The position numbers and the translations under genes were made by a program. DNA of 64,000 nucleotides from contig CAYZNW010000002.1 in assembly GCA_964480345.1 (NCBI GenBank), positions 524 through 64,523 on the forward strand, given 5' to 3'. The notes below the pieces were generated by a model that was not told where the DNA came from, did no database searches, and was given only the letters and a program-made list of their open reading frames with translations. The stretch comes from an uncultured Candidatus Saccharibacteria bacterium (GTDB lineage Bacteria > Patescibacteriota > Dojkabacteria > SC72). This document shows, piece after piece, positions 783 to 55,821 of this stretch. Every line of letters begins with the position of its first letter. Position 1 is the first letter of the stretch.

Positions 783-1022
783 ATGGAAACTGTTACCATG
801 TACCTATCTGAAGCATTAAAGACAACTAGGGTAAGGCAGAATTTAACACAAAAAGAGTTGTCTAGGATGTCAGGAATTAGCTATTCCACTATTACAAAAA
901 TTGAGACTGGGGTTATTACCAATCCTAGCTTTTTTCTTGTTGTTAAATTATGTCAGGCATTAGAAATAACTACTGACAATTTACTTAAACTAATTACAAA
1001 TTATGATGGCAAAACAAAGTGA
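783..1022 (+). CDS. XRE-family helix-turn-helix transcriptional regulator (candidate R-M controller 'C protein')
   Basis: 79 aa. Classic Cro/C1 HTH (LTQKELSRMSGISYSTITKIETG). Its 3' end overlaps the start of the mod gene, as is typical for C-protein/MTase arrangements. Confidence 0.7.
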   Translation: METVTMYLSEALKTTRVRQNLTQKELSRMSGISYSTITKIETGVITNPSFFLVVKLCQALEITTDNLLKLITNYDGKTK

Positions 1023-2955
1023 ACCTCAGAGTATATCTCCAATTAAAGGAAGACCAATGCTTCAATGGACTGGAAAGAAGCCTTTAGAATCAATTGAATA
1101 TTTTCCTGCACAAGAGAAAGAAATGTATGGAGATTTAGATGCTAAGGAATTTAACAAGCTATTCTGGGGTGATAACTTACAAGTTTTGTCACATTTGCTA
1201 AAAGAATATAGAGGCAAAATTAATATGATATACATAGATCCACCTTTTGATAGTAAGGCTGAATATGTAAAGAAGATTAAAATTAGAGATAAACAATATC
1301 AAGGACAAAATCAAAGTCTACTTGAAGAGAAGCAATATACAGATATATGGGAAAATGATGAGTATCTTCAATTTATGTATGAAAGATTGGTAATATTAAG
1401 AGAATTGCTTGATGATACAGGGTATTGCTATTTACATGTTGATCCTATCAAAGGTCATTACTTGAAATTAATTATGGATGAGATTTTTGGCCCTGAGAAT
1501 TTTGTAAATCAAATTATATGGAAGAGAACTTTTTCTCATGGTGATGTTGGTCAAGGTGCTGAGCATATGGGAAGGTTGCATGACATGATTCTTTTCTATA
1601 GAAAAACACCTTCTGCTAAATTAAATATTTTATATACACCTTACACCAAGAAATACTTAAAAGATTTTTATAAATATGAAGATGATAAAGGAATTTATCG
1701 TTTAGTATCCCTTCTTGGTCCTGGAGGAGCTTCAAAGGGAAATCCCTACTATGAATTTTTAGGAGTAAGTAGATATTGGGTACATTCAAAAGAAAAAATG
1801 GAAAAGTTATATAAACAGGGTTTAATAGTTCAGACTAAACCAGGTTCTGTTCCTCAAAAGAAGAGATATTTAAACAATTCAAAAGGTGTTCCATTACAAG
1901 ATATATGGACAGATTTAAATCCTGTTCAAGGTTCAAGTTTAGAGAATTTCGGTTATCCAACTCAGAAACCAGAAGCTTTATTAGAAAGAATAATTTCTAC
2001 ATCTTCGGCTAAAGGTGGTTTGGTTCTTGATTGCTTCTGTGGAGGTGGTACTACATTAGCAGTAGCTCAAAAATTAGGAAGAAGATGGATAGGTTGTGAT
2101 ATTAACCTAGGTGCTATTCAAACTACAACAAAGAGATTAAATCAAATTCTTGAAGAACAGAAACAAAAGAAACTTCTTGATAAATCTCAAGGTCTATCTG
2201 CTTTTAAAGTCTACAATGTGAATGATTATGAAATCTTTAAGAATGAAATAGAATCTAAAGAAATCATAATGGAAATGTATGGAGTTGAACCTATTAAACA
2301 AAGCTATTTTGATGGTGTATTAGATCAAAATTTAGTCAAGGTAATGCCTCTCAATAGAGTCTTAAACAAAATGGATGTAGAAAATCTATTAAAAGAAATA
2401 AGTAAATCCACAGATCAATTTACACCTAAAACAACAACATCTAAGGAAGAAGAGACCTATGAGGAAGGGGTTTTAATTATAGCTTCAGGTGTTGAATTAG
2501 ATGCTCAAAATTATTTGAGGAAGGAAAACAAAACTGGAGTAAAAGTTGAAATAAGAGATATTCAAGCAGATAAAAAGAACCTTTTGTTCAAAAAACCAAC
2601 AGAAGCAGAAGTTGAGGTTCATACTGTTGAAAATAAGGCAATTGTCTCTGTCAAGGACTTCTACTCTCCTATTCTTGTTCAAAAGTTAGAGCTAGAAAAT
2701 GAAAAACAACTAAATCCTAAAGGTAAAGTTGTAATAGAAGATTTTAAACAAATTATTGACTCTGTATGTATTGATATAAATTACAATGGAAAACTATTTA
2801 ATGCAGAGATAATGGATATACCAGATAAGAAAAACCTTGTTAGTGCTACATATGAACATGAGTACACATCAAAAGGAAAATATACATTGGCAATAAAGAT
2901 AGTAGATGTCTTAGGTGAAGAATACTTTGAAACATTTGATATTAGTATTAAATAA
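1003..2955 (+). CDS. mod: Type III restriction-modification system methyltransferase (Mod), beta-class amino-MTase
   Basis: Motif IV IYIDPPF (DPPF) lies N-terminal to motif I DCFCGGGTT (FxGxG), which is the beta-class order. It is immediately followed, 2 bp after its stop, by a helicase/endonuclease res gene. Has an extra roughly 250-aa C-terminal region. Confidence 0.75.
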   Translation: MMAKQSEPQSISPIKGRPMLQWTGKKPLESIEYFPAQEKEMYGDLDAKEFNKLFWGDNLQVLSHLLKEYRGKINMIYIDPPFDSKAEYVKKIKIRDKQYQGQNQSLLEEKQYTDIWENDEYLQFMYERLVILRELLDDTGYCYLHVDPIKGHYLKLIMDEIFGPENFVNQIIWKRTFSHGDVGQGAEHMGRLHDMILFYRKTPSAKLNILYTPYTKKYLKDFYKYEDDKGIYRLVSLLGPGGASKGNPYYEFLGVSRYWVHSKEKMEKLYKQGLIVQTKPGSVPQKKRYLNNSKGVPLQDIWTDLNPVQGSSLENFGYPTQKPEALLERIISTSSAKGGLVLDCFCGGGTTLAVAQKLGRRWIGCDINLGAIQTTTKRLNQILEEQKQKKLLDKSQGLSAFKVYNVNDYEIFKNEIESKEIIMEMYGVEPIKQSYFDGVLDQNLVKVMPLNRVLNKMDVENLLKEISKSTDQFTPKTTTSKEEETYEEGVLIIASGVELDAQNYLRKENKTGVKVEIRDIQADKKNLLFKKPTEAEVEVHTVENKAIVSVKDFYSPILVQKLELENEKQLNPKGKVVIEDFKQIIDSVCIDINYNGKLFNAEIMDIPDKKNLVSATYEHEYTSKGKYTLAIKIVDVLGEEYFETFDISIK

Positions 2956-2957
2956 TT

Positions 2958-5498
2958 ATGACTACCCTACTCTTAGAAAAACTCAAAAACAAAGTAGAAT
3001 CTTGGAAGTCAGAAGGTTATCCTGGCATAACATCTGAGACAAGAAAAATCCTTAATCATATTTATAAAGTAAATTACCTTTATAGACCTCAGAAAGAAGC
3101 ATTTGAAACATATGTTTATATTAAGGAAATACTAGCGAATAAAACTACTTCAGATATTATCCCTTCTCTTTATGAATCAGATAGAGAGTTAATAGAAAGC
3201 CTCTCAATATCATCAGAAGAGAAAGTAGATCTAGCATATGATCCAAAAAGAGATGAGAAGATAAAAGAACTTATTGAAAAACAATATGGTCAATTTGCTT
3301 ACCCTAATCAAGTATATGCATTGACAATGGGTGCAGGTAAAACTCTATTGATGGGTACATTAGTAATGTATGAATTTATTTTGTCATCTCAGTATCCTGA
3401 AGACCCTAAATTTGCTAAGAATATACTTGTCTTTGCTCCTGATACAACCATTATTGAGAGCTTAAAAGAAATAAAATCTTTTGATTACAGAATTGTTGTT
3501 CCAAAAGAATATGAAAATGTTGTGCTAAATATAAAATATCACTATTTAGAGACACCTGACACACCTGTAAACCTAGTTGGAAATTACAATATTATTGTTT
3601 CAAATTCTCAGAAGATTATTCTTAAAAAGAAAAATAATGTTTTGAAGTCTGGACAAATCCTATTAAATGAAGCTGATAGAAATAAACAATTCCATAAAAA
3701 TTTAAGAAGAGAAGCTATAAGAAGACTTTCCAATCTAGCTATATTTGTAGATGAAGCTCATCACTCTTATGGCTCAAATCTTGATAAAACATTGAAAAGG
3801 ACAAGACAAACAATAAAATATTTAAATGAAGAAGGTAAAACACCTTTAGTAAATGTTGTTAATCTTACTGGAACACCTTATGTAAACAACAATCTCATAA
3901 GTGATGTTGTATATCACTTTGGATTAAAACAAGGTATTGAAGAAGGGATTTTAAAGCAAGTGAAATTCAAAGATTATGATAATGTAAAGTCAGAGGAATT
4001 TGTTTCAGATGTTGTAGATGAATTTTTAGACAAATACAGTAATATTAAATTAGAAGGTAAATTACCCAAGATAGCCTTTTATTCAAGTAACATAGAAGAT
4101 CTACAACAGAATCTAAGACCAGCATTAGAAAAAGTATTAACAAGTAAGGGTATATCTATAGATACAATCCTTGAATATCACACAAAGAAGGAAGAAAACA
4201 AAGAAGAATTTATTAAGTTGGATACTGAAGAAAGCAAAAAACAATATATCCTTCTAGTAGGTAAAGGTACAGAAGGATGGAATGTTCGTTCTCTAGTGGC
4301 TACAGCTCTCTACAGGAAGCCTACAAGCTCTATCTTTGTCCTTCAGGCTTCTACAAGGTGTATGAGGTCAATAGGAGACAATTCAACCCCTGCTACAATC
4401 TTCTTATCCAATGAAAATGCAACAATTCTAGAAAAAGAGTTGCAAAAGAACTTTGCAGTTACTAGGGCTGATTTAGAAAGGCAAGATATAGAAAAAGTTG
4501 ATTTAGAATTAAATGTTTTAAAAAAGAAGAAAGTTAAAGTTAAAAAAGTTCTTAAAGAGATTGTAAGTATAGAGAAAAAAGAACCTAAAGATATTACTCT
4601 TAAATCAATTGATGATTATGCTTCTGGTATTAAGGGAAGTGTTATTACTGAAGGTGGTATCTTATTGGATAAGGATAATAAGACAGCATACATTCAAACT
4701 AAATCCAAGAAAGAAAAGAAATGGGAGAAATCTTCAATTTCACCTTATCATCTAATTTCTAATCTATCTATTAGAACTCACCTGCCTTGCTTGAGCATTA
4801 AAGAGATCTTGGAAAATAATGATTTAAAAATAGATGATATAGAAAAGCTTAACACTAAAAATTATGATGATATTCTGAACCTAATATCACAAGATATTAC
4901 AAATCAGATTTTTGAGTATAAAGAGAACAAAACTGTTATTGAGGAAGAATTGGAATTAACAAAGAACTTCCCATTTAAGTTATCTAGAGATATAGGAAAA
5001 AGTAAGTTAGTAGTATACAAAGCGGAGGGAGATGATTCAAGATTAGGTTTTCATATAAACCCCTATTCCTTTGATACAGATGATGAAAAGGATCTTTTCT
5101 TATTCTTAAGTGAGACTTTAGAACCTAATGAGGTTATAACAGATGTTTATTTTACAGGGAATATAACTGATTCATCTCATACAGATTTCTATTTTGAATA
5201 TTGGAATCCAACCAAGGAAAAAATAAGTAGATATTTCCCAGACTTTTTGATTGAAACTAGTAAGGGTAGATTTCTTGTTATTGAAGTAAAAGGTGACCAG
5301 GAAAGAACTACATATCAACAAAATAAAGAGATGTTTGAGAAAGGTGAGAAGAAAATCTTTGATGAGGTATATGCAAAAGAATTAGGTTTCAAAGATTTTC
5401 AACAGGAGAATAAGAATTTTGATTATCACATAATATTTAATGCCAAATTACAGCAAAGGCAAAAAGAGTTGTTGGGTAAGATAAATTCAAACATATAA
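2958..5498 (+). CDS. res: Type III restriction enzyme Res subunit (SF2 DEAH helicase + C-terminal PD-ExK nuclease)
   Basis: Walker A MGAGKTLL, DEAH box FVDEAHHS and motif III LTGTP. C-terminal nuclease motif YFPDFLIETSKGRFLVIEVKG (PD...EVK). Gene order mod-res. Confidence 0.75.
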   Translation: MTTLLLEKLKNKVESWKSEGYPGITSETRKILNHIYKVNYLYRPQKEAFETYVYIKEILANKTTSDIIPSLYESDRELIESLSISSEEKVDLAYDPKRDEKIKELIEKQYGQFAYPNQVYALTMGAGKTLLMGTLVMYEFILSSQYPEDPKFAKNILVFAPDTTIIESLKEIKSFDYRIVVPKEYENVVLNIKYHYLETPDTPVNLVGNYNIIVSNSQKIILKKKNNVLKSGQILLNEADRNKQFHKNLRREAIRRLSNLAIFVDEAHHSYGSNLDKTLKRTRQTIKYLNEEGKTPLVNVVNLTGTPYVNNNLISDVVYHFGLKQGIEEGILKQVKFKDYDNVKSEEFVSDVVDEFLDKYSNIKLEGKLPKIAFYSSNIEDLQQNLRPALEKVLTSKGISIDTILEYHTKKEENKEEFIKLDTEESKKQYILLVGKGTEGWNVRSLVATALYRKPTSSIFVLQASTRCMRSIGDNSTPATIFLSNENATILEKELQKNFAVTRADLERQDIEKVDLELNVLKKKKVKVKKVLKEIVSIEKKEPKDITLKSIDDYASGIKGSVITEGGILLDKDNKTAYIQTKSKKEKKWEKSSISPYHLISNLSIRTHLPCLSIKEILENNDLKIDDIEKLNTKNYDDILNLISQDITNQIFEYKENKTVIEEELELTKNFPFKLSRDIGKSKLVVYKAEGDDSRLGFHINPYSFDTDDEKDLFLFLSETLEPNEVITDVYFTGNITDSSHTDFYFEYWNPTKEKISRYFPDFLIETSKGRFLVIEVKGDQERTTYQQNKEMFEKGEKKIFDEVYAKELGFKDFQQENKNFDYHIIFNAKLQQRQKELLGKINSNI

Positions 5499-5501
5499 AA
5501 G

Positions 5502-6995
5502 GTGAGAACAATTCTCTTAGCAAGAGTCTCAACATATGAACAAGAGACTATTCAACAGATAACAAAATTAAAGGAATATATTAACTCAAGACCTGAGCTA
5601 ACACTTGCAAAGGAAGATATTTTTGATTTTGATGAAAGTGCTCACAAGGATCTTTCTCAGAGAAAAAAGTTTAATGAAGTATTAGAAACAATTGCACGGG
5701 CAAGTGAGAAAATAGCAGTTTGTTCTGACAAAATTGATAGAATGACAAGAGATTTTCTTACTTTCTTACCAGTAATTGATCGTCTTAGAAAAAAGGACAA
5801 GGTTGAACTACACTTCCCTGGTGATAATTTAATACTCAACAATGAATCTCCTGCTGGAGATTTATTTAGGTTTAATATGGGTGTAAGTTTGGCTCAATAT
5901 TACTCAGATTCAATAAGTGATGGAGTTAAGAGAAAAATTGCTTACAAGATTAGAGAAGGAGAGATTCTTACCCTTGCCCCATTTGGATATAAGAATGTTC
6001 GTGTTGGAGATACTGAAGAAAGAACTGTAGTGGTAGATGAATATGAGGCACAGATTGTTCTTAAATTGTTTCAACTTTATTCAACAGGTGCTTATTCCTA
6101 TTCTGACTTAAAGAAATTAGTATATGAAGAATACAATGTAGAGCTTGGAGATAAGGATAACAGAGGTAAATCATCAATTGGGAACATATTAACCAACAAA
6201 TTTTATATTGGGATTGCAACTTACAAAAAGAAAAACCTTCAATATCAACATAAATATGAGACCATAGTTCCTGATTATTTATTTAACAAAGTGAGTGAAA
6301 TAAGGGAATCTAGGACTCTCAGCAAGGGTAGAGGTAAGACAAGTAAGAAGGATTTCCTTTATGGTAACACTATCAAATGCTCGGTTTGTGGTTATTCAAT
6401 TACTCCTGAAGAACATAGAGGTAAAGCTAGTTATAAATGTACTGAATATGGAGGTAAGCATGGTGCAAAATATGTACAAGAAAAAGTGTTAGATGAGCAA
6501 TTTAGAAAGGCATTTGAAAGGTTGACATTGCCACAGAAGAAAGCAGAAAAGTTAATTGATGATCTTAGAAAGATAAATGATGTAAATTACTATATTGCAG
6601 AAGGGACATTGGAGAAGCTGTATGAGAAGAAGGATACAATTAAGAAAATGAAATCAAAATTGTATGATGACTATGCCTCTGGTAAGCCAGGTATTACTAA
6701 TGATTTCTATGAAGAAAAGATAAGACAGTATGATTTAGATACTGCTGAGATAGATGAAAAAATTAAAAGAGTTGAGAAAGTAGAAAGTTCCTTTTATGTA
6801 ACAGCAGGATACATTATAGAGCTAACCAAGAATAGTTCTAAACTATTTGAAGTTTCAAAAGAAGAAGAAAGAAGGCTATTGATTAAGACAGTACTTCTGA
6901 ACATAACATGGGATGGAGAAAAGCTTTATTATGACTATAATTCTCCCTTTGATTTGATAGTAAAATTGAATGAAAGTACAGACTGGGGTGTATAA
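5502..6995 (+). CDS. large serine recombinase (resolvase/integrase family)
   Basis: The N-terminus LLARVSTYEQ contains the catalytic Ser motif of serine recombinases. 497 aa, with a C-terminal zinc-ribbon-like CSVCGYS...YKCTEYGG segment typical of large serine recombinases. Starts with GTG at 5502. Confidence 0.75.
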   Translation: MRTILLARVSTYEQETIQQITKLKEYINSRPELTLAKEDIFDFDESAHKDLSQRKKFNEVLETIARASEKIAVCSDKIDRMTRDFLTFLPVIDRLRKKDKVELHFPGDNLILNNESPAGDLFRFNMGVSLAQYYSDSISDGVKRKIAYKIREGEILTLAPFGYKNVRVGDTEERTVVVDEYEAQIVLKLFQLYSTGAYSYSDLKKLVYEEYNVELGDKDNRGKSSIGNILTNKFYIGIATYKKKNLQYQHKYETIVPDYLFNKVSEIRESRTLSKGRGKTSKKDFLYGNTIKCSVCGYSITPEEHRGKASYKCTEYGGKHGAKYVQEKVLDEQFRKAFERLTLPQKKAEKLIDDLRKINDVNYYIAEGTLEKLYEKKDTIKKMKSKLYDDYASGKPGITNDFYEEKIRQYDLDTAEIDEKIKRVEKVESSFYVTAGYIIELTKNSSKLFEVSKEEERRLLIKTVLLNITWDGEKLYYDYNSPFDLIVKLNESTDWGV

Positions 6996-13241: not shown

Positions 13242-15887
13242 TTAGAGACCTTTTGAACCTACCTCTCTTTTGTAAAGTAATGCATCTCTACCGAAGAAAA
13301 TAGTAGATATCTTTTGGAATTTATAGTCATAGTTTAACACAGTAACAGGGTTTGTATTGTTGTACAGCATTAGATCTCTTTGCATATTTACTGCAGAATC
13401 TCCATTTAGATTTTTTCCGAAAGCTACAAGAGCACCGTTTATTTCTACACCATCTCTTGTTAAAGAGGTAGAATCAGCAAATTCTATATTTATTTGATTA
13501 TTTGCTACTACAAAACCATCTATGTAATCATATTTCACTGTATTTGCTGTGCTGTTATATACTCCCTCTTTAATATTCACACTGTTTCTTGCAAAGAATA
13601 TACAACCTGATGTTTTACTACTCCCACTTTCTATATTTGGATACAAGTTTATATTCTTGTCTGACATTACTAATATCTTTCCTTTACACTGTGTTCCAGA
13701 TGCAATATTTATGTCTTCTGTACTAGATAGGTAGCATGACTCTCCATCTAAACATTCATTAATGCTAGTTATTTGTTTTGATGGTGTCTTCTCTTGCTCT
13801 GTTTCAAATTTCTTTTTTAAATATTCGAACCAGAAATCTTTTCTAAGGTTTGAATCCGTTATTGATACTGCTCTTACCGCTGTACTGTTTGGTTTTGTAA
13901 ATTTAGGAATAAACTGGTTAGAAGATGAGAGTATCTCTGTTGCTTTATCTAATGTTTCGTTGTTAATAGTTCGAAGGGACGGTACAGAATTAATCAATTG
14001 AGCTTCTATGCCTGGATAGCCGTATGAGTATACGATAGATCCTTTGGTTGCATACCATGGATCTAATCTGATTTGTGAGGATACGGATGCATAATTACAT
14101 GCTGTATCGTAAGCTGTACCATACATAGTTATGGTACCTAGCTCATTGTTATTAATATTTACTAATTTGCTAGCAGAGTATGGATTTATATTTAGGTTTG
14201 TAAATTTCCATGTATTGCTATCGGTTAACAAGCCTATGAGGTTTTCTGATGGTACATTTTGTGAAGTACTACTTAAGGCAATATTGTTAGGCATAGTTGC
14301 CATAGAGATGTAGTCGCTGTTACCTCCGTTTCCTAGGTCAGTTCTGTAAGCGTTGATTACATAGTTCGAGATGTTAGAAGTACTGTCTGATGAGTACCAA
14401 GAGAGGTTAAATTCTTTTGAAGATAGTATGTCTTTTGTTAATGGTCGTGCTTCTGGATTTATTAAGTCTACTCCCCAATCAAAATATTTTACTGCATTTC
14501 TTTGATCTATTCGTCCATCTTGCATAAACATATATTTATCTAGTGCTGCTCCTCTCATGTTAAACATTCCATTTACTTTGTCTGTGAAAGATATTTCGTA
14601 CTGAGCAGCTACATTTGCTCCTTCATTAATTACTATGTTGTGTATGGAAAGTATTTTTCCTGCTCCTACATCTACTAGTCCATTGTTTGTTAGTATCCAA
14701 TTTTTATCCGTGTTCATGGTGTATATTAATGGGGAGTTTGTCCATGAGTTGTTATTTTTCTTAACCATTATTCCTATTTCATTGGTATCAATATTACTGT
14801 TTGTTGTAGCTATTCGGCTGAATTGGGGTGATGTGTTTGTTTTACTTATCCATAGGACAAATGCTTCTATTTCAGAATTTCCATCTACATCAGTTGATTC
14901 GTATCTGATTTTGAACGGGTTGTTGGCTTCTAGGCCTGTAAATGTTGTGGTCGTACATCCTCTATCTGTAGTAGATGAGTTAGTAATTTTAGTCATGCTT
15001 GAATTTGGAGGAGTATTTACTTTGTAAAAAACTTGTTTTACTGAGGAGTACTGTTTGTTATTATCACATCTGTTTGTACTGTAATACAAAGCACCTATGT
15101 CTCCAGTAGATCCAGGTTTAAAGGCAGAGGTTTTGCTCATGGAGGATGGAGCTATATCCATAGTGTTTACTGTTGATTCTCTACAGTAGTCTTCTGGTCT
15201 TGGGTTGCTGCAATCGCTCCATGCTATCCATTCGTTGTTAATTCCGTAATTATTTCCTCTTAGTATGTATCCTACTCCTCTATCTAGGGAGATGTTTGAG
15301 TATATGAGGGGTTCTACAGTAATTCTCATAGGGCTTGTATCTGAGATTGGAGATACAATTCTAGTAGGGTTATATCTATCTGAGGAGAGTAAAAATGTTG
15401 AATTATCAATACTCATTCTTACTGTAGTTAGTGTTGTAGTTGGAGATGTATTAGTTTCTGCTCGATAGCATGTACCAGATATCCCACAACTTCTTCCACA
15501 ATCATTTGAGTAAGAGCAGCCAATTGTTTTTCTATCATTAGAGCAATAGTTGTTAGGATTTGTAGGAGAATAACCAGCTGGGCAAGATGGTAAAGCGCAA
15601 CTACCACTGCAGGAGTCATCACAAGGACACTCTACTTCACATTGACCATATCCTTCGCAACAGGAAGCACAAACAGCAATATCTTCTCTACAAACTGTTA
15701 CACAACCTTTTGTAGGGCTACATGTTTCTACACAGTTCAAACCTCCTCCTGTTCTTTTACAACAGTTGTTCCAGTCTATACAGCAAGATTCATAACAAGC
15801 TGAATTTACAAGCCCTTTATTGTTAAAAGAAAATAGAAAAATTGTAAATATAGTTGAGAATATTATGGCTAATTTAGAGGTTTTCAT
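13242..15887 (-). CDS. large secreted protein with extremely Cys-rich N-terminal module
   Basis: Signal peptide, then about 40 Cys in the first 150 residues (CCIDWNNCC, CASCCEGYGQCEVECPCDDSCSGSC). The rest is Ser/Thr/Asn-rich. 881 aa. Confidence 0.6.
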   Translation of the reverse strand: MKTSKLAIIFSTIFTIFLFSFNNKGLVNSACYESCCIDWNNCCKRTGGGLNCVETCSPTKGCVTVCREDIAVCASCCEGYGQCEVECPCDDSCSGSCALPSCPAGYSPTNPNNYCSNDRKTIGCSYSNDCGRSCGISGTCYRAETNTSPTTTLTTVRMSIDNSTFLLSSDRYNPTRIVSPISDTSPMRITVEPLIYSNISLDRGVGYILRGNNYGINNEWIAWSDCSNPRPEDYCRESTVNTMDIAPSSMSKTSAFKPGSTGDIGALYYSTNRCDNNKQYSSVKQVFYKVNTPPNSSMTKITNSSTTDRGCTTTTFTGLEANNPFKIRYESTDVDGNSEIEAFVLWISKTNTSPQFSRIATTNSNIDTNEIGIMVKKNNNSWTNSPLIYTMNTDKNWILTNNGLVDVGAGKILSIHNIVINEGANVAAQYEISFTDKVNGMFNMRGAALDKYMFMQDGRIDQRNAVKYFDWGVDLINPEARPLTKDILSSKEFNLSWYSSDSTSNISNYVINAYRTDLGNGGNSDYISMATMPNNIALSSTSQNVPSENLIGLLTDSNTWKFTNLNINPYSASKLVNINNNELGTITMYGTAYDTACNYASVSSQIRLDPWYATKGSIVYSYGYPGIEAQLINSVPSLRTINNETLDKATEILSSSNQFIPKFTKPNSTAVRAVSITDSNLRKDFWFEYLKKKFETEQEKTPSKQITSINECLDGESCYLSSTEDINIASGTQCKGKILVMSDKNINLYPNIESGSSKTSGCIFFARNSVNIKEGVYNSTANTVKYDYIDGFVVANNQINIEFADSTSLTRDGVEINGALVAFGKNLNGDSAVNMQRDLMLYNNTNPVTVLNYDYKFQKISTIFFGRDALLYKREVGSKGL

Positions 15888-17301: not shown

Positions 17302-18090
17302 CTAAATCCAATCTTTACCAAACAATCCTCCTCCTATATTATTATCCATACTCAAAACTCTTTCTATATTCCAAACTAAATCAGGTCTATCTGATACCGT
17401 ATCCTTTAACCATTCTAGATACTCTCTGTCAAGCTTTGCAATATCCTCTAGTGTCTTTCCCGCATATTTACCAAAAGATATATTTCTAATATATGCTGGT
17501 TCTTTTGTAATCATTAACATCTGTTCTGTTGTGAATTTGCTGTTTTGTTGAATATATTCAAATAGATCTTTTAGAAAATAGACATCACTCATAGCATCAT
17601 GGGCTGTTGTATGTTCTTGATTTTCGTTCTTATACAAACCTAGATAATATCTTAGAAATTGTAATGAATAGCTCTCTATATCTCCATTTGTACTCTCATC
17701 TTGAAGTAAGTTTCTAGATAATTTATATGTACATATGTACTTAGATACAGTGATCCCTTTCTTAGCTAATACTTCTAAATCAAACTCTGCATTGTGAGCC
17801 ACCCAAATATATTTTTTAGCTAGAAATTCTAAATACTCTTTTAATGAATTTCCTTCAAATTCTTTATCTTTACCATTTTCATCCACTACTGCATCATTAA
17901 ATAACTCCTTGTCTTTAAGGAGCTCAGGAGTAATATGGTGTACTGCCATTGCCGAAAAAGAAATTCTTTGTAGAGGTTTAAAGTATTTATTTAGAATTAC
18001 ATCCTCACCATCTGTAAGAGCTAATTGAATTATATCTTTAGATTGTACATCTGTTGTTTCTGTATCAAAGAAGAGAAATTTGTCATTCAT
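17302..18090 (-). CDS. DnaQ-like DEDDh 3'-5' exonuclease with C-terminal KYAGKTLEDI..YLEWL (DUF3820-like) tail
   Basis: Exo I FFDTETTD, Exo II HNAEFDLEVL, Exo III HTAHDAMSD. C-terminal FGKYAGKTLEDIAKLDREYLEWL resembles the small domain fused to ExoX-type exonucleases (from memory). Confidence 0.7.
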   Translation of the reverse strand: MNDKFLFFDTETTDVQSKDIIQLALTDGEDVILNKYFKPLQRISFSAMAVHHITPELLKDKELFNDAVVDENGKDKEFEGNSLKEYLEFLAKKYIWVAHNAEFDLEVLAKKGITVSKYICTYKLSRNLLQDESTNGDIESYSLQFLRYYLGLYKNENQEHTTAHDAMSDVYFLKDLFEYIQQNSKFTTEQMLMITKEPAYIRNISFGKYAGKTLEDIAKLDREYLEWLKDTVSDRPDLVWNIERVLSMDNNIGGGLFGKDWI

Positions 18091-18120
18091 GATTAGATAA
18101 TACAGGAATTAGAAAAGTAT

Positions 18121-18248
18121 GTACAACAAAAAATAAGGCATAAAGCACACATATATTTTTAAAATGATGATTTGTAGAGGAGTCTAGGTAAGTATATGTT
18201 AAACATATATTTTAGGATATATAAAATATCACTAAATCTTACCTAGAC
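18121..18248. repeat. 128-bp direct repeat, copy 1 (100% identical to 19051..19178); contains a 13-bp-stem hairpin (18180..18192 / 18238..18250)
   Basis: Base-by-base comparison of the two intergenic regions. Embedded inverted repeat gagtctaggtaag ... cttacctagactc with a 45-nt AT-rich loop that holds a second small palindrome (tatatgtt a aacatata). Confidence 0.9.
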
Positions 18249-18292
18249 TCTCTAGAAGATTCTATACCATATTGATATAGCTCTTCATTGTG

Positions 18293-18943
18293 TTAGTTCT
18301 CCTGAAAGATGGTAGGCTCTTCTTGCAAAGTATAATTGTCACAAAACCAAATCGTAGTAAAGTTATTATTAACAAAATAGTTTTGCACTGGATATCCAAC
18401 AGGACATACAATTTTAGATGGATTACTAATATCCTGAACAATTTTTCGTAAGAGATTTATTTTTGCTGTCGGATCTTTTATGTCTGTGCTACAAAGATAT
18501 ACTACATCATCATGTTCTTTTGCATAATTATATGTATCTACATTGTCTTTATAATTACTCCACATGCTATATTCTTCTGCTGTACACAGAGTTATTGGAT
18601 CTTCATAGAATGCAAATGATGAACAGAACCAATCAGATAACTTACCTGATTCATCTATATTTTGAACAGGAAATGTTCCTTCTTCACATTTGATAGTAGG
18701 TTCATCTACTCTAGATAAAGCTCTACATTCTGAAGTGATAAGATCTTTGTTTTCCATATCATGTAAACACAGAAATGCCCCATCATTTTCTTTACAAGCA
18801 TTATACAATTCAGAATTCTCTTCTTTCTGAAGGTTTAATTCTTCTATAGTACAAAGTGGTGATGTACTCTCTATTGCATACACTGATGCTAATGAGAAAA
18901 ACAACATAACAAAAACTAATGATAACAAACCAAACTTTTTCAT
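18293..18943 (-). CDS. secreted Cys-containing hypothetical protein
   Basis: Signal peptide MKKFGLLSLVFVMLFFSLASVYA and about 12 Cys. Flanked on both sides by the 128-bp repeat. Confidence 0.55.
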   Translation of the reverse strand: MKKFGLLSLVFVMLFFSLASVYAIESTSPLCTIEELNLQKEENSELYNACKENDGAFLCLHDMENKDLITSECRALSRVDEPTIKCEEGTFPVQNIDESGKLSDWFCSSFAFYEDPITLCTAEEYSMWSNYKDNVDTYNYAKEHDDVVYLCSTDIKDPTAKINLLRKIVQDISNPSKIVCPVGYPVQNYFVNNNFTTIWFCDNYTLQEEPTIFQEN

Positions 18944-19050
18944 TTTCTCCTCCTTTTAGAGAACTATTTTTTATTGTTTAAGAGCTAACTAACACAATAA
19001 TATTATATCTAATTTATCACACAAACACAATACTATGGGTCAGTGCATTG

Positions 19051-19178
19051 GTACAACAAAAAATAAGGCATAAAGCACACATATATTTTTAAAATGATGA
19101 TTTGTAGAGGAGTCTAGGTAAGTATATGTTAAACATATATTTTAGGATATATAAAATATCACTAAATCTTACCTAGAC
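19051..19178. repeat. 128-bp direct repeat, copy 2
   Basis: Identical to 18121..18248. Lies 15 bp downstream of the stop of the 19193..20044 gene and about 108 bp upstream of the 18943 start. Confidence 0.9.
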
Positions 19179-19192
19179 ATCCTGCACAAAAG

Positions 19193-20044
19193 TTAGTTGA
19201 TTTGTATCTTTTCTCGGGGATCACCCTGACAACTAAAAATATCTTCCAGTTTAATACCGTTCTTCCAAAGAGCCATGTCTTCATTCCATGAAGATTCATC
19301 AAATACACCACTGTGTAATCCAACAACTAAGTAACAAGACGGATTGTTGTAGTAAAGAATATACCCTTCGTTATATGGTTCCGCTGGGAACGATTCGAAA
19401 ATCTTCTTTTCAGCATTTCCACATACCTGGGAGATTGGTTCATTACTAACAATATATCTTACTTGTTTCTCAGCAAGTCTTGGATCTTCATATTTACCCT
19501 CATTCCAGTCGTAATTTAGCTTGTCAGCTAAAGTCCATACATTAAAACCATTGATGTCTTCTCTTGCGAAAGGATTAATGATTTCATCATATGTGTAATC
19601 AGTTCCACAAGCACAATCTCGCGCTTGAATATATGGAATAGGTGTCACATACTCTGCTGGTCCCATATCAACTGGAGTAATTGGTATTATGTCGATAGGT
19701 GCGTCAGGATTGCGTACAACAGGACAATAGCAACGGATAGTACTATCTTTACCCTTTTCGCACTGTTGTGGCAATCCGTCATAACATAGCGGTAGCTTTG
19801 GATCAGGTTGTACAAATCCATACGTACACCTATAACCTAAATAGTTGGTTTCTAAATCTACTGCACAATTGATTGCATAAGATCCTGGTTGGGGTGTTTG
19901 ACAGCCCTCTGTTGCAATATCAACTTCATCTTTAGTACATGGTCTCGTTTCAGCAAAAGCTGAAGTCACTAAAAAAAGTGACAATACAAAAACGACAAGA
20001 ATTAACAAACGACCGGTTTTCATAATTCCTCCTAGGGGAAACAA
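19193..20044 (-). CDS. secreted Cys-containing hypothetical protein
   Basis: Signal peptide MKTGRLLILVVFVLSLFLVTSAFA and about 14 Cys. No recognisable domain. Confidence 0.55.
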   Translation of the reverse strand: MFPLGGIMKTGRLLILVVFVLSLFLVTSAFAETRPCTKDEVDIATEGCQTPQPGSYAINCAVDLETNYLGYRCTYGFVQPDPKLPLCYDGLPQQCEKGKDSTIRCYCPVVRNPDAPIDIIPITPVDMGPAEYVTPIPYIQARDCACGTDYTYDEIINPFAREDINGFNVWTLADKLNYDWNEGKYEDPRLAEKQVRYIVSNEPISQVCGNAEKKIFESFPAEPYNEGYILYYNNPSCYLVVGLHSGVFDESSWNEDMALWKNGIKLEDIFSCQGDPREKIQIN

Positions 20045-20230
20045 TTTCTTCCAAAATGGAAGTTTTTTAACTGTTAAAGATCAACTAACTTTTAACACAA
20101 CTACATTATATCAAAAATCTACCCCCTCTACAACTCTATAGGCTCAGCTATTGAAGTAGCATAGATATCAACAGAAACAGCAGTATGATATATTTAAACA
20201 AACAGAGAATAAATTTAAAAATAAGCCACG

Positions 20231-22704: not shown

Positions 22705-23469
22705 ATGATTGTTAAAAATGAAAATGAAGAGAAACTGTTGTTGGAAGCTGGTAAAATTTCTATGGAGATTCTGTATCAACTTGGACAGAGAGTAAAGGTA
22801 GGAAATACACCTATTGAGATAGATAACTTTGCGGGTGAGCTTTGTAAAGAATATAAGGTGCATCCTGCTTTTCAAAGAGTTGAGGGATATCACTTTAATA
22901 CATGTATTTCTGTTAATGATGTGCCTGTTCACGGTATTCCTACTGGTATACCATTTAAAGAGGGTGATCTTGTTTCAATAGATTTTGGAATTGTTTATAA
23001 GAAGCTGTATACAGATCACTGTTGGACATGGAGTGTTGGAAAGCCAAATGAGAAAAACAGTAAATTACTTACTGCTGGGAGAAATGCTGTAGAGAATGCT
23101 ATATCTAAAGCTATTGTAGGTAACAGAGTTGGTGATTTAGGGTATGAGATGCAGTTAGAGGCAGAGAGAAACGGATTTAATGTTTTAAGTATATTTGTTG
23201 GACACGGTATCGGTCATACTTTGCATGATGATCCAGAGATTCCTGCTTTTGGTAGAAAAGGTAAAGGTACACTTCTTGAAGATGGTATGGTTATTTGTAT
23301 TGAGTGTCAGGTAGTTGATGATGTGGATGATGTGGAGATAGATAAGGATGGTTGGACAGCGAGGACAGTTAATGGTGGAAATAGCGTTATGTTTGAATAT
23401 ATGGTTATTGTTAAAAAAGATGCTCCTCTTGTTCTTACAGACCAGTATAGTTGGTCTACGGTTGCTTAA
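22705..23469 (+). CDS. map: methionine aminopeptidase type I
   Basis: M24 metal-ligand pattern: DFG...D...HG(I)GHTLHDDP...CIEC. 254 aa. Confidence 0.9.
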   Translation: MIVKNENEEKLLLEAGKISMEILYQLGQRVKVGNTPIEIDNFAGELCKEYKVHPAFQRVEGYHFNTCISVNDVPVHGIPTGIPFKEGDLVSIDFGIVYKKLYTDHCWTWSVGKPNEKNSKLLTAGRNAVENAISKAIVGNRVGDLGYEMQLEAERNGFNVLSIFVGHGIGHTLHDDPEIPAFGRKGKGTLLEDGMVICIECQVVDDVDDVEIDKDGWTARTVNGGNSVMFEYMVIVKKDAPLVLTDQYSWSTVA

Positions 23470-23663
23470 GATATCCAAATCGTGGTGTAATACTATAGGT
23501 TGGTCTAATAACCTAAAATATTTCTATTCAATATAGAAATACTGCTCATTAAAAAGGATATCAGCTATATATCACTCCCTATATGTATTCAAATTTATTG
23601 AATGTTTCTAGGGCGTGATATACATATCACAAAACTACTAATCATAAAAAGAGAGAGGCAAAA

Positions 23664-23861: not shown

Positions 23862-23867
23862 TATCCA

Positions 23868-23950
23868 ACCCGAGTAAGAAGAGGCATACGCTTCGATATT
23901 CTACATTTCATATGTAAAATATCATCTTCTTGCTCGGGTCTTTTTCTTTT
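23868..23950 (+). terminator. rho-independent-like terminator with unusually long loop
   Basis: 15-bp stem (23868..23882 pairs with 23925..23939, one G.U) enclosing a 42-nt loop. Followed by c + TTTTTCTTTT (23941..23950). Confidence 0.5.
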
Positions 23951-25431: not shown

Positions 25432-25500
25432 ACAGTTAAAGTAACAACTTAATTAGAGATGTTACACTGTTAAAACGGTCTTAGTCAAATAGGGATAATT

Positions 25501-25535
25501 CAGAGAGTAGAATTTGGAATAGATTCCACTCTCTG
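25501..25535 (-). terminator. hairpin (8-bp stem cagagagt/actctctg, about 19-nt loop) downstream of the 25569..25853 gene; possible terminator without a clear U-tract
   Basis: Inverted repeat seen directly in the sequence, 34 bp after the stop codon. Confidence 0.25.
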
Positions 25536-25568
25536 AGTGAATAAATAGGGAATATTGCTATTCCAGCG

Positions 25569-31778: not shown

Positions 31779-31826
31779 ACAGAAGTAGTATATACAGATT
31801 TATTCATCACATCAACATTCACAACA

Positions 31827-31851
31827 GGTCTGACCTAGGTCAGACCTCCAA
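31827..31851. promoter_or_regulatory. GC-rich perfect palindrome GGTCTGACC-TA-GGTCAGACC (+TCCAA) in a divergent promoter region; shares a 20-nt identical core with 55802..55821
   Basis: 20-bp perfect inverted repeat. It lies 49 bp upstream of the 31778 start and 73 bp upstream of lemA. GC-rich against an AT-rich background. Confidence 0.5.
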
Positions 31852-55782: not shown

Positions 55783-55821
55783 GGAGGTCCAACCTAGGTC
55801 CGACCTAGGTCAGACCTCCAA
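55783..55821. promoter_or_regulatory. GC-rich imperfect palindrome GGAGGTCC-AACCTAGGTC-CGACCTAGGTC-AGACCTCC; shares a 20-nt identical core with 31832..31851
   Basis: Outer 7-bp arms ggaggtc/gacctcc. Two tandem ACCTAGGTC units. Located between the divergent DUF192 and HelD-like genes. Confidence 0.5.

Follow-up and report, generated by a model that had tools for sequence, protein, structure and literature searches.

A three-way-junction element repeated behind two secreted-protein genes upstream of exoX in a Dojkabacteria genome

The window, by which we mean the whole 64-kb stretch of DNA that was analysed, contains a minus-strand gene array in which a perfect 128-bp repeat occurs in two consecutive spacers. 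In the direction of transcription, the order is a 276/283-aa gene, repeat copy 2, a 216-aa gene, repeat copy 1 and a 262-aa gene, as described in the original prediction; all features below with an orientation lie on the minus strand. The 276/283-aa gene (19193..20023) encodes a signal peptide, and its product measures 276 aa from an ATG preceded by AGGAGG, or 283 aa from an upstream TTG (19193-20044). The product of the 216-aa gene (18293..18943) consists of a signal peptide and two tandem ~90-aa Cys-containing domains. The 262-aa gene (17302..18090), which had previously been left without an identity, encodes an ExoX-like 3'-5' exonuclease according to its Pfam matches (RNase_T and ExoX-like_C), and is conserved downstream of the element described here. 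Its start is of the leaderless type, with a -10-like TATTAT (18097..18102, outside the repeat) 6 nt before the ATG and no Shine-Dalgarno sequence. A LexA operator was considered for TTGTACAT at the repeat end and rejected, as there was no informative enrichment and no clear copy upstream of lexA.

The two repeat copies, at 18121..18248 in the 216-aa gene/exoX spacer and at 19051..19178 in the 276-aa gene/216-aa gene spacer, match at 128 of 128 positions and are spaced 930 bp apart. The sequence and a repeat search of the window thus bear out the perfect identity that had been reported. The pair is the sole long repeat of the window; the remaining direct repeats are at most 41 nt long with 65–96% identity, which is chance level. 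The earlier statement that the region has no other repeats therefore holds, except for a 26-nt palindrome at 31826 and 55796. Each copy runs from a stable branched hairpin just past a stop codon, through an A/T-rich spacer (18121..18174 in copy 1), to TTGTAC (18126-18121 in copy 1), which is the -35-like box of the exoX promoter. This anatomy fits the earlier idea of a combined terminator/promoter module. A template/variable repeat pair of a diversity-generating retroelement was rejected, because the window encodes no reverse transcriptase and both copies are non-coding and 100% identical.

The structured part of the repeat, which we call element E, measures ~80 nt and is followed by ~50 nt of A/T-rich spacer. 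Copy 1 lies at 18175..18254 and copy 2 at 19105..19184; both were delimited by folding and by covariance models, and copy 1 scored 100 and 96 bits with models R1 and R2. The stems GAGTCTAGGTAAG/CTTACCTAGACTC are as originally described, with 13 bp in copy 1 (18180-18192 with 18238-18250) and 11 bp in copy 2 (19112-19122 with 19168-19178, also recovered by an inverted-repeat search). The palindrome TATATGTT-A-AACATATA was likewise found inside the 45-nt loop. However, the simple nesting that had been proposed does not stand, since the loop holds two hairpins (hairpin 1, TTTAG.T.GATAT/ATATC.CTAAA; hairpin 2, TATATGT/ACATATA) and each copy therefore folds as a three-way junction. In copy 1 the 13-bp outer helix is extended, past a bulged C, by 4 bp that reach 6 nt beyond the repeat. 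In copy 2 the 5' flank differs (AGGA) and pairs with the same 3' arm (TCCT). The free energy of E is -32.6 kcal/mol (z = -7.4), and the minimum free energy fold is the same three-way junction in all 8 variants. Both strands fold equally well. Between the stop codon of the 216-aa gene and copy 1 lies a small simple hairpin (18255..18286, z -3.8); such hairpins are frequent between stop codon and E, and could be the actual terminators.

The secreted-protein genes upstream of E are organised as self-contained cassettes. Each has its own -35/-10-like boxes and its own AGGAGG Shine-Dalgarno sequence, and promoter and leader are common to the cassettes, as is a short inverted repeat around GTTAGTT. 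In the 216-aa gene (family 2), the 3' arm of this inverted repeat (AACTAACACAAT on the gene strand, 18287..18298) overlaps the stop codon, and the 5' arm (ATTGTGTTAGTT, 18987..18998) lies in the leader just past the -10 box; the arms pair at 12 of 12 positions. The promoter-like region read from the sequence (19002..19039) comprises CCCATAGTATTGTGT, 17 nt and TATAAT, and its architecture recurs in L009, L087, L096 and L005. The 276-aa gene (family 1) has 19-nt arms with 89% pairing, again overlapping the stop codon (19188..19206) and in the leader (20075..20093, from an inverted-repeat search), downstream of a promoter-like region at 20106..20143 (CCTATAGAGTTG ... GATATAAT). Exact inverted repeats were read directly here, because RNAduplex scoring of leader against tail was dominated by long A/U-rich duplexes. 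A search with the 276-aa protein returned only itself, and its homology to L094 and L007 was found by direct BLASTP. The AlphaFold model of the 216-aa protein has a mean pLDDT of 61, was built on only 3 sequences and is too weak for a fold search. GTTAGTT-bracketed cassettes were also sought in distant relatives, but the paired TGTTAGTT matches in L014, L018 and L027 were located in coding sequence and dismissed as chance.

A search of related genomes revealed further copies of E, one in each of the Candidatus Dojkabacteria relatives whose ExoX is 70–85% identical (L005, L006, L007, L008, L009, L088, L094, L095, L096 and L098). The element always lies 10–70 nt past the stop codon of a signal-peptide gene, and in 8 of 9 cases it is directly upstream of the exoX promoter. 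The genes upstream of it belong to three unrelated families, of which 0, 1 or 2 members are present at the locus: family 1 in the window, L007 and L094, family 2 in the window, L006/L009/L098, L095 and L096, and family 3 in L005 and L087. This single element copy and the varying gene number in relatives support the earlier suggestion that a recent event underlies the perfect identity in the window, and fit a cassette-like insertion or gene conversion. The number of copies is low throughout, with 2 in 64 kb of the window (filters off) and 1 per related locus in 425 kb. Exact matches to the stem numbered 2 among 185,579 species genomes, one per genome, and phage and plasmid collections and two pattern scans of viral contigs gave no match to E. 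The original prediction had overlooked the conservation in other genomes, the three-way junction and the modular nature of the flanking cassettes with their shared promoter, leader and inverted-repeat motifs.

Comparison of the homologues supports the structure by covariation. Since a MAFFT alignment misplaced the inner hairpins, we used a hand alignment (with N as gap placeholder) and an Infernal alignment; both were fitted to the structure and contain only 8–9 distinct sequences. In the hand alignment 92.7% of the cells pair and 18 of 38 pairs change on both sides, compared to 91.1% and 18 of 30 in the Infernal alignment; none of 500 shuffles reached this level in either case. The outer helix covaries, with double changes in 10–12 pairs and a bulged C or T retained. 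While the outer helix varies freely in sequence, there is no variation in TTTARTGA or in the hairpin 2 core (ATGT/ACAT), which suggests sequence-specific recognition and is more than a plain terminator requires. The aligned cells comprise 248 Watson-Crick pairs, 6 G.U pairs on the gene strand and 10 A.C combinations, which are G.U on the other strand. This nearly pure Watson-Crick pairing without strand bias, together with the equal folding of both strands, does not point to an RNA of one particular strand.

Two comparisons between relatives indicate what E is associated with. In L087, exoX directly abuts enolase, without a co-directional gene upstream and without E, and yet has the same promoter (TTGTACA, 17 nt, TGTATTAT); the -35-like TTGTAC is indeed kept in all relatives. 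The E copy of L087 lies behind a family-3 cassette, two genes from exoX. Hence, E goes with the cassette and not with exoX. A deletion scar of E at the empty site of L087 was sought and rejected, as local alignment there was no better than with shuffled sequences, the promoter excepted. From the exoX promoter onward, L006 and L007 hardly differ, but they have different cassettes and E variants; their similarity ends at a breakpoint ~21 nt upstream of the position corresponding to the repeat end of the window.

How could these observations be explained? We give roughly even credence to the reading that E is a transcript-end or insulator module that moves with each cassette, and that a recent recombination or gene conversion has doubled in this genome. 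According to this reading, E would be a lineage-specific intergenic module that forms the 3' end-piece of self-contained cassettes (promoter, leader, Shine-Dalgarno, ORF), which are exchanged upstream of exoX within one group of Dojkabacteria. As the last part of the cassette mRNA, E would fold into a branched hairpin that terminates or attenuates transcription and/or shields the 3' end, and the leaderless exoX promoter would thereby be insulated from read-through. This genome would carry two tandem cassettes, each closed by E; the spacer element is present twice because there are two tandem secreted-protein genes. A recent homologous event could then account for the 100% identity over 128 bp, whether the 216-aa cassette was inserted through E or the two E copies underwent gene conversion. 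Judged from sequence, action at the RNA level, a terminator or insulator role and one of these recombination routes are the most likely assignments. E starts 14 nt (copy 2) and 38 nt (copy 1) past the stop codon. However, it is not a canonical intrinsic terminator, given that the window copies have no U-tract directly past the helix (CUCCUCUACAAAUCAUCAUUUU) and that the stem is A/U-rich and branched. A U-run 3–5 nt past the helix occurs only in L007, L088 and L094, and a terminator scan of the window returned nothing at E. Similar long or branched hairpins lie at other gene ends of the window; one of these (23864-23950, z -9.5) has a U-tract behind it and is also conserved in L087.

An alternative explanation, which we consider unlikely, is that E is or yields a discrete functional RNA, either a small RNA derived from the 3'-UTR or a protein-binding element, acting in cis on the cassette mRNA or in trans. 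The earlier proposal of a structured element is supported by the covariation, which is strong in two helices, and the very stable fold, the invariant nucleotides in hairpin 2 and at the base of hairpin 1, and a -10-like TAGAAT just upstream of copy 1 would all suit an RNA. In contrast, copy 2 lacks a promoter-like sequence of its own, the G.U pairs have no strand bias, and E is confined to a narrow group and a single genomic context. Moreover, Rfam at gathering thresholds found only 4 tRNAs in the whole window and nothing at E, and at an E-value of ≤ 10 over 18050-19250 it gave only chance snoRNA and miRNA matches far below threshold. The lack of strand bias would be expected if E worked as DNA. 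For instance, a regulator or nucleoid protein might bind the nested palindromes as a double-stranded operator or architectural site and control the cassettes and/or exoX. The invariant palindromic cores (ATATGT..ACATAT and TTAGTGA..TCCTAA), the pairing by Watson-Crick pairs only and the position next to the exoX promoter are in line with such a site. Yet, a duplex site needs no compensatory changes 45–60 bp apart in an outer helix, the exoX promoter of L087 is conserved without E, and no regulator gene is linked, which makes an operator very unlikely.

Folded DNA would also be the substrate if E were a structure-specific recombination site (attC-like or a folded single strand) at which secreted-protein cassettes are captured, excised and shuffled, with the duplicate marking an integration. 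A conserved structure with a freely varying outer helix and retained bulged bases, and the near absence of G.U pairs on either strand, are what one would expect of such a site. Furthermore, E moves with unrelated ORFs, the L087 cassette sits elsewhere, and ORFs extend into a common end motif from which their stop codon comes, in cassettes with short terminal inverted repeats. Against this, the Pfam scan of the window proteins found no tyrosine recombinase or integrase, transposase or reverse transcriptase, and none beside E; the only recombinase is a large serine recombinase (5502-6995) located 11 kb off, beside a type III restriction-modification system. RYYYAAC/GTTRRRY core sites are missing from the helix base, every cassette has promoter-like boxes and a Shine-Dalgarno sequence, each genome fragment has just 1–2 copies, and the L006/L007 breakpoint indicates that there is no fixed crossover point. 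A recombination site is accordingly improbable, and a dedicated site-specific one, in a strong sense, is not supported: no recombinase gene lies nearby, attC-type core sites are missing, and that breakpoint does not coincide with the repeat end of the window. It is more speculative still that E and the GTTAGTT/AACTAAC terminal inverted repeats form an undescribed CPR cassette system, analogous to attC, with a folded-DNA site next to exoX and a different, unlinked recombinase. Insertion of a MITE on two occasions, comparable to Correia, ERIC or RUP elements, would account for ~80 bp with 13–17-bp terminal inverted repeats in an intergenic location where it would be co-transcribed with genes. 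It is nevertheless barely credible, as there is no target-site duplication (the flanks TCTAGA/CTCTAC and GCAGGAT/CTCTAC are not direct repeats), the copies are few and always in the same context, and the repeat runs 54 bp past the inverted repeats on one side only. Finally, the tandem arrangement might be an assembly artefact, in which a graph loop caused by a strain mixture, a small circle or an amplified segment was resolved as A-E-B-E-C. The largest k-mers of assemblers are about as long as this perfect 128-bp repeat, and the 216-aa protein is recorded only from the NCBI contig and not from the Logan assemblies of three runs that contain the flanking genes. However, the Logan contigs of SRR15237809, -10 and -11 end exactly 30 nt (k-1) inside the repeat from both outer flanks, so that the contigs of these independent assemblies imply branch points in the reads at both repeat ends, and both junctions between E and the 216-aa cassette must exist in the reads, even though an integrated copy and a 930-bp circle would look alike in graph topology. 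A Logan contig of the 216-aa segment would measure ~862 nt, which is below the length of every Logan contig found and may explain the missing protein. A family-2 gene occupies the same place, directly upstream of E and exoX, in L006, L095 and L096. We therefore regard an artefact as highly improbable.

To our knowledge, the non-coding elements of CPR bacteria are almost unexplored. E adds a three-way-junction element that is supported by covariation and absent from Rfam. It also reveals that, in one group of Dojkabacteria, genes for fast-evolving secreted proteins are organised as modular units that have promoter, leader, end motifs and end-piece in common, and that the number of these units differs between strains. 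The cassette proteins are likely factors for host or surface interaction of these episymbionts. If E is a terminator, it would represent an unusual branched, U-tract-poor type in this phylum, and other genes of the same genome end in similar structures; as a recombination site, it would belong to a new cassette system. Either way, the exoX locus offers a defined place for studying gene-content variation in uncultured bacteria from existing metagenomic reads.

Compared to known systems, E resembles intrinsic terminators, including hairpins without a U-trail, in being a very stable, gene-oriented hairpin soon after a stop codon and before the next promoter. It differs from them in its A/U-rich three-way junction of ~80 nt and, in the window copies, the lack of an adjacent U-tract, which sister structures behind other genes of this genome possess. 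Its inner hairpin is invariant across genomes, while plain terminators need no such invariance. REP/BIME, ERIC, Correia, RUP and BOX elements are, like E, palindromic and intergenic, and can serve as terminators, mRNA stabilisers or recombination substrates. These occur as tens to hundreds of dispersed copies, in contrast to the one context and 1–2 copies of E.

The attC sites of integrons include the 120–130-bp repeats of Vibrio cholerae, and long attC sites can be branched. E is similar to them in size, in the conservation of structure over sequence, in its extrahelical bases and in its position 3' of unrelated ORFs; near-identical copies within one array are another shared feature. However, E lacks R''/R' core sites: its helix base reads GAGTCTAGG...CCTAGACTC, and the sole GTTAAAC forms the apex of an inner hairpin. 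Nor is there an intI tyrosine integrase among the window proteins or an attI or Pc nearby. Integron cassettes are promoterless and depend on a common promoter, whereas each cassette here has promoter-like boxes of its own, and the array has only 1–2 units without a fixed crossover point. In gene content, a further likeness is to variable islets that lie between conserved core genes and are exchanged by homologous recombination: next to exoX, otherwise syntenic genomes have 0, 1 or 2 fast-evolving genes for secreted proteins. Unlike such islets, each unit at this locus has conserved non-coding ends, consisting of the promoter and leader, the GTTAGTT inverted repeat and E, and thus constitutes a modular cassette.

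The 128-bp direct repeats at 18121-18248 and 19051-19178, first described as set in a region otherwise free of repeats, match at 128 of 128 positions. All remaining direct-repeat families in the 64 kb are at most 41 nt long with 65–96% identity, and none approaches this pair. The window has a G+C content of 33%. In gene order, the minus-strand array runs from a 276-aa signal-peptide protein (19193-20023; 283 aa with an upstream TTG start) through repeat copy 2, a 216-aa signal-peptide protein (18293-18943) and repeat copy 1 to exoX (17302-18090), which encodes a 262-aa ExoX-like 3'-5' exonuclease (Pfam RNase_T and ExoX-like_C). The 276-aa and 216-aa proteins show no relationship to each other. 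In Logan assemblies of three sequencing runs, the flanking genes encode identical proteins, and contigs stop exactly 30 nt (k-1) inside the repeat from both the exoX side and the 276-aa side. Hence, independent read sets contain the branches at both repeat boundaries. We regard the repeat as real, and as explained in outline.

In the 216-aa protein, a Cys-containing domain of ~90 aa occurs twice in tandem through internal duplication (BLASTP between halves, E = 5e-10). Among 5.8 billion clustered proteins, the 216-aa protein has just two homologues, and AlphaFold models it with low confidence (pLDDT 61). An 881-aa protein (13242-15887), encoded two genes downstream of exoX, has a signal peptide and an extremely Cys-rich stretch of ~100 residues at its start, and finds no match in Pfam. 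Secreted or surface proteins seem to take up the entire minus-strand array.

Each repeat copy had been described as a stem around a 45-nt loop holding a palindrome. Stems and palindrome are present, but the loop is not a plain one: its remainder forms a second hairpin, giving a three-way junction. This ~80-nt element, E (copy 1, 18175-18254; copy 2, 19105-19184; minus strand), combines an outer helix with hairpin 1 (TTTAG.T.GATAT/ATATC.CTAAA) and hairpin 2 (TATATGT/ACATATA). Its free energy is -32.6 kcal/mol, with z = -7.4 on the gene strand and -6.6 on the opposite strand. The 5' flanks outside the repeat differ (TAGAGA in copy 1, AGGA-T in copy 2), yet each can use a register of its own to pair with the common 3' arm, so that both copies keep an extended outer helix.

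Minimum-free-energy folding gave the same three-way junction in all eight distinct variants of E, even though their outer-helix sequences diverge widely: the 5' arm reads GAGTCTAGGTAAG in the window, GAAGCTAGGTAAG in L088 and L087, GGGA-T-GCCCGGATAGAA in L007 and GGGA-T-GTTCGGATAGAA in L094 (L numbers denote loci or contigs of related Dojkabacteria). A hand-made structural alignment, with N as gap placeholder, had 92.7% of cells paired and both-side changes in 18 of 38 pairs, values reached by 0 of 500 shuffles; slid registers paired just 22–54% of cells. An Infernal-made alignment gave 91.1% paired cells and both-side changes in 18 of 30 pairs (shuffles, 0 of 500). Since both alignments are structure-fitted and hold 8 sequences each, the covariation evidence that the structure is under selection is good but not final.

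A scan for the outer stem in one genome per GTDB species returned two matches, both Candidatus Dojkabacteria assemblies with E between a secreted-protein gene and an exoX orthologue. Among exoX loci gathered independently of E (80 metagenome loci plus contig look-ups), only the closest relatives, whose ExoX is 71–85% identical, have E upstream of exoX (L005, L006/L008/L009/L098, L007, L094, L095, L096 and L088), once per locus. Where ExoX identity is 66% or less, E is absent and the gene neighbours are different. Two covariance models, run over ~430 kb of related loci and, with filters off, over the window, gave no further copies beyond a partial one where a contig ends in L087. Logan contigs from several other samples (L088-L093 and L087) likewise terminate within E or at its edge, and the loop of hairpin 1 varies by a 1-nt indel (ATATTATG vs ATTATG); these populations too may have a polymorphic or repeated E.

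The genes directly upstream of E belong to three unrelated families: family 1 (the 276-aa protein, L094, L007; 36–37% identity), family 2 (the 216-aa protein, L006/L009/L098, L095, L096; 44–47%) and family 3 (L005, L087; 50%). Each forms a cassette with a promoter-like CC(C)ATAGTATTGnnn, 17 nt and TATAAT, a leader starting (T)TGTGTTAGTT, AGGAGG, the ORF, and a short inverted repeat; the leader motif serves as its 5' arm, and the 3' arm (AACTAAC...) lies across or after the stop codon. This repeat matches at 12 of 12 positions in window family 2 (18287-18298/18987-18998), L005 and L009, over 19 nt at 89% (14 nt perfect) in window family 1 (19188-19206/20075-20093), and over 9 + 10 nt in L087. 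The bases beside the shared core GTTAGTT are unlike between cassettes and matching within each. The L096 cassette is also bracketed by GTTAGTT/AACTAAC, a motif that gives stop codons in several frames and both orientations. With one arm at the predicted mRNA start and the other over the stop codon, these repeats could serve 5'-3' mRNA pairing, or be terminal inverted repeats or inversion sites. The promoter-like block and leader (TTGTGTTAGT..GTTAG..TTTAAA) are common to unrelated secreted-protein genes (window 19002-19039 and 20106-20143, minus strand; L009 2080-2200; L087 5790-5906; L096 745-845; L005 4545-4660), which suggests co-regulation or a common modular origin.

E is part of the upstream gene cassette. 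L006 and L007 are near-identical from ATGCCTTAATTTCTGTTGTAC onward, through the exoX promoter and gene, but differ upstream of it in both cassette and E variant; thus, E goes with the cassette. Their breakpoint, ~21 nt upstream of the window repeat end, argues against a single fixed crossover point. In L087, exoX abuts enolase with no adjoining cassette and no E, keeping promoter-like boxes (TTGTACA, 17 nt, TGTATTAT, 8 nt, ATG); there, E follows a family-3 cassette two genes beyond exoX. A single cassette adjoins exoX in L005, L007, L094, L095 and L096; L006/L009 have a 649-aa gene besides their one cassette, and the window has two cassettes.

Relatives carry family 1-E-exoX or family 2-E-exoX, and the window family 1-E-family 2-E-exoX. 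Because E diverges strongly between genomes even where exoX is near-identical, a 128/128 match within one genome indicates a very recent event, a duplication explained by the two cassettes in tandem. Copy 1 looks like the resident copy from its L005-like 5' flank (TAGAGA|GTCTAGG) and native exoX promoter. Copy 2 joins the tail that belongs to family 1 at one end; at the other, 11 nt lead to the family-2 promoter. Possibly, a family-2 segment bearing E was inserted homologously through E; gene conversion between two older copies of E fits as well. The window encodes no tyrosine integrase, transposase or reverse transcriptase, and the repeat/cassette segment has no match in phage, plasmid and viral collections. 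Its sole recombinase, a large serine recombinase (5502-6995) 11 kb away, follows a type III restriction-modification pair made up of an N6/N4 methylase (1003-2955) and a Res helicase (2958-5498); together, the three genes (1003-6995) may form a module that is mobile or can invert. That these bacteria have a structure-specific cassette system seems to us unlikely.

E is a conserved, covariation-supported three-way-junction module closing secreted-protein cassettes in one Dojkabacteria group. The best-supported reading, to which we give an even chance, is a module of the cassette transcript end that would stop or attenuate transcription and/or shield the 3' end, thereby insulating exoX. The repeat comprises exactly the branched hairpin and the spacer that runs to the exoX promoter, up to its -35-like TTGTAC; the -10-like TATTAT of this promoter stands 6 nt before the ATG, and a Shine-Dalgarno sequence is lacking. 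Across ~80 Dojkabacteria exoX loci, an extended -10-like box (TGnTATACT/TATTAT) lies 6–9 nt before the ATG without a Shine-Dalgarno (window 18088-18126), suggesting a conserved leaderless exoX mRNA. Hairpins of this kind, long or branched (z -3.7 to -9.5), occur at other gene ends of this compact genome: a three-way junction at 23864-23950 (plus strand, z -9.5) followed by the U-tract CUUUUUCUUUU, with a counterpart at L087 95-183; 23566-23626 (plus, z -5.9); a very stable one at 23468-23566 (plus); and 25494-25542 (minus, z -6.0). In this lineage, branched structures resembling terminators may be widespread. A GC-rich perfect palindrome, AGGTCTGACCTAGGTCAGACCT then CCAA, occurs in divergent intergenic regions upstream of a LemA gene (31826-31851) and, partly duplicated, of a UvrD-like helicase/DUF192 pair (55785-55821); it looks like an operator or bidirectional hairpin.

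Against a canonical terminator count the absence of a U-tract adjoining the helix in both window copies (a U-run lies 3–5 nt past it only in L007, L088 and L094) and the small simple hairpins sometimes found between stop codon and E. Alternatively, E could be a recombination site or a protein-binding site. Its pairing is nearly all Watson-Crick, at 248 cells; a further 6 cells are G.U on the gene strand, and 10 are A.C, which would read G.U on the other strand. As neither strand is favoured, the selected fold is compatible with RNA from one strand, RNA from either strand, or DNA. The hairpin 2 core (ATGT/ACAT) is invariant while the other helices vary, which suggests specific recognition and is a further point against a canonical terminator.

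Among known systems, Rfam families gave no match to E. A dispersed MITE/REP-type repeat was ruled out by the 1–2 copies, single context and missing target duplication, and a DGR repeat pair was also rejected. E resembles long integron attC sites in size, in keeping structure while sequence varies, in bulged bases and in its place after unrelated ORFs; however, core sites, integrase and promoterless cassettes are all missing here, which places E outside the attC family. Although E in this genome departs from intrinsic terminators in the U-tract, it is closest in working to a non-canonical intrinsic terminator or 3' end-piece.
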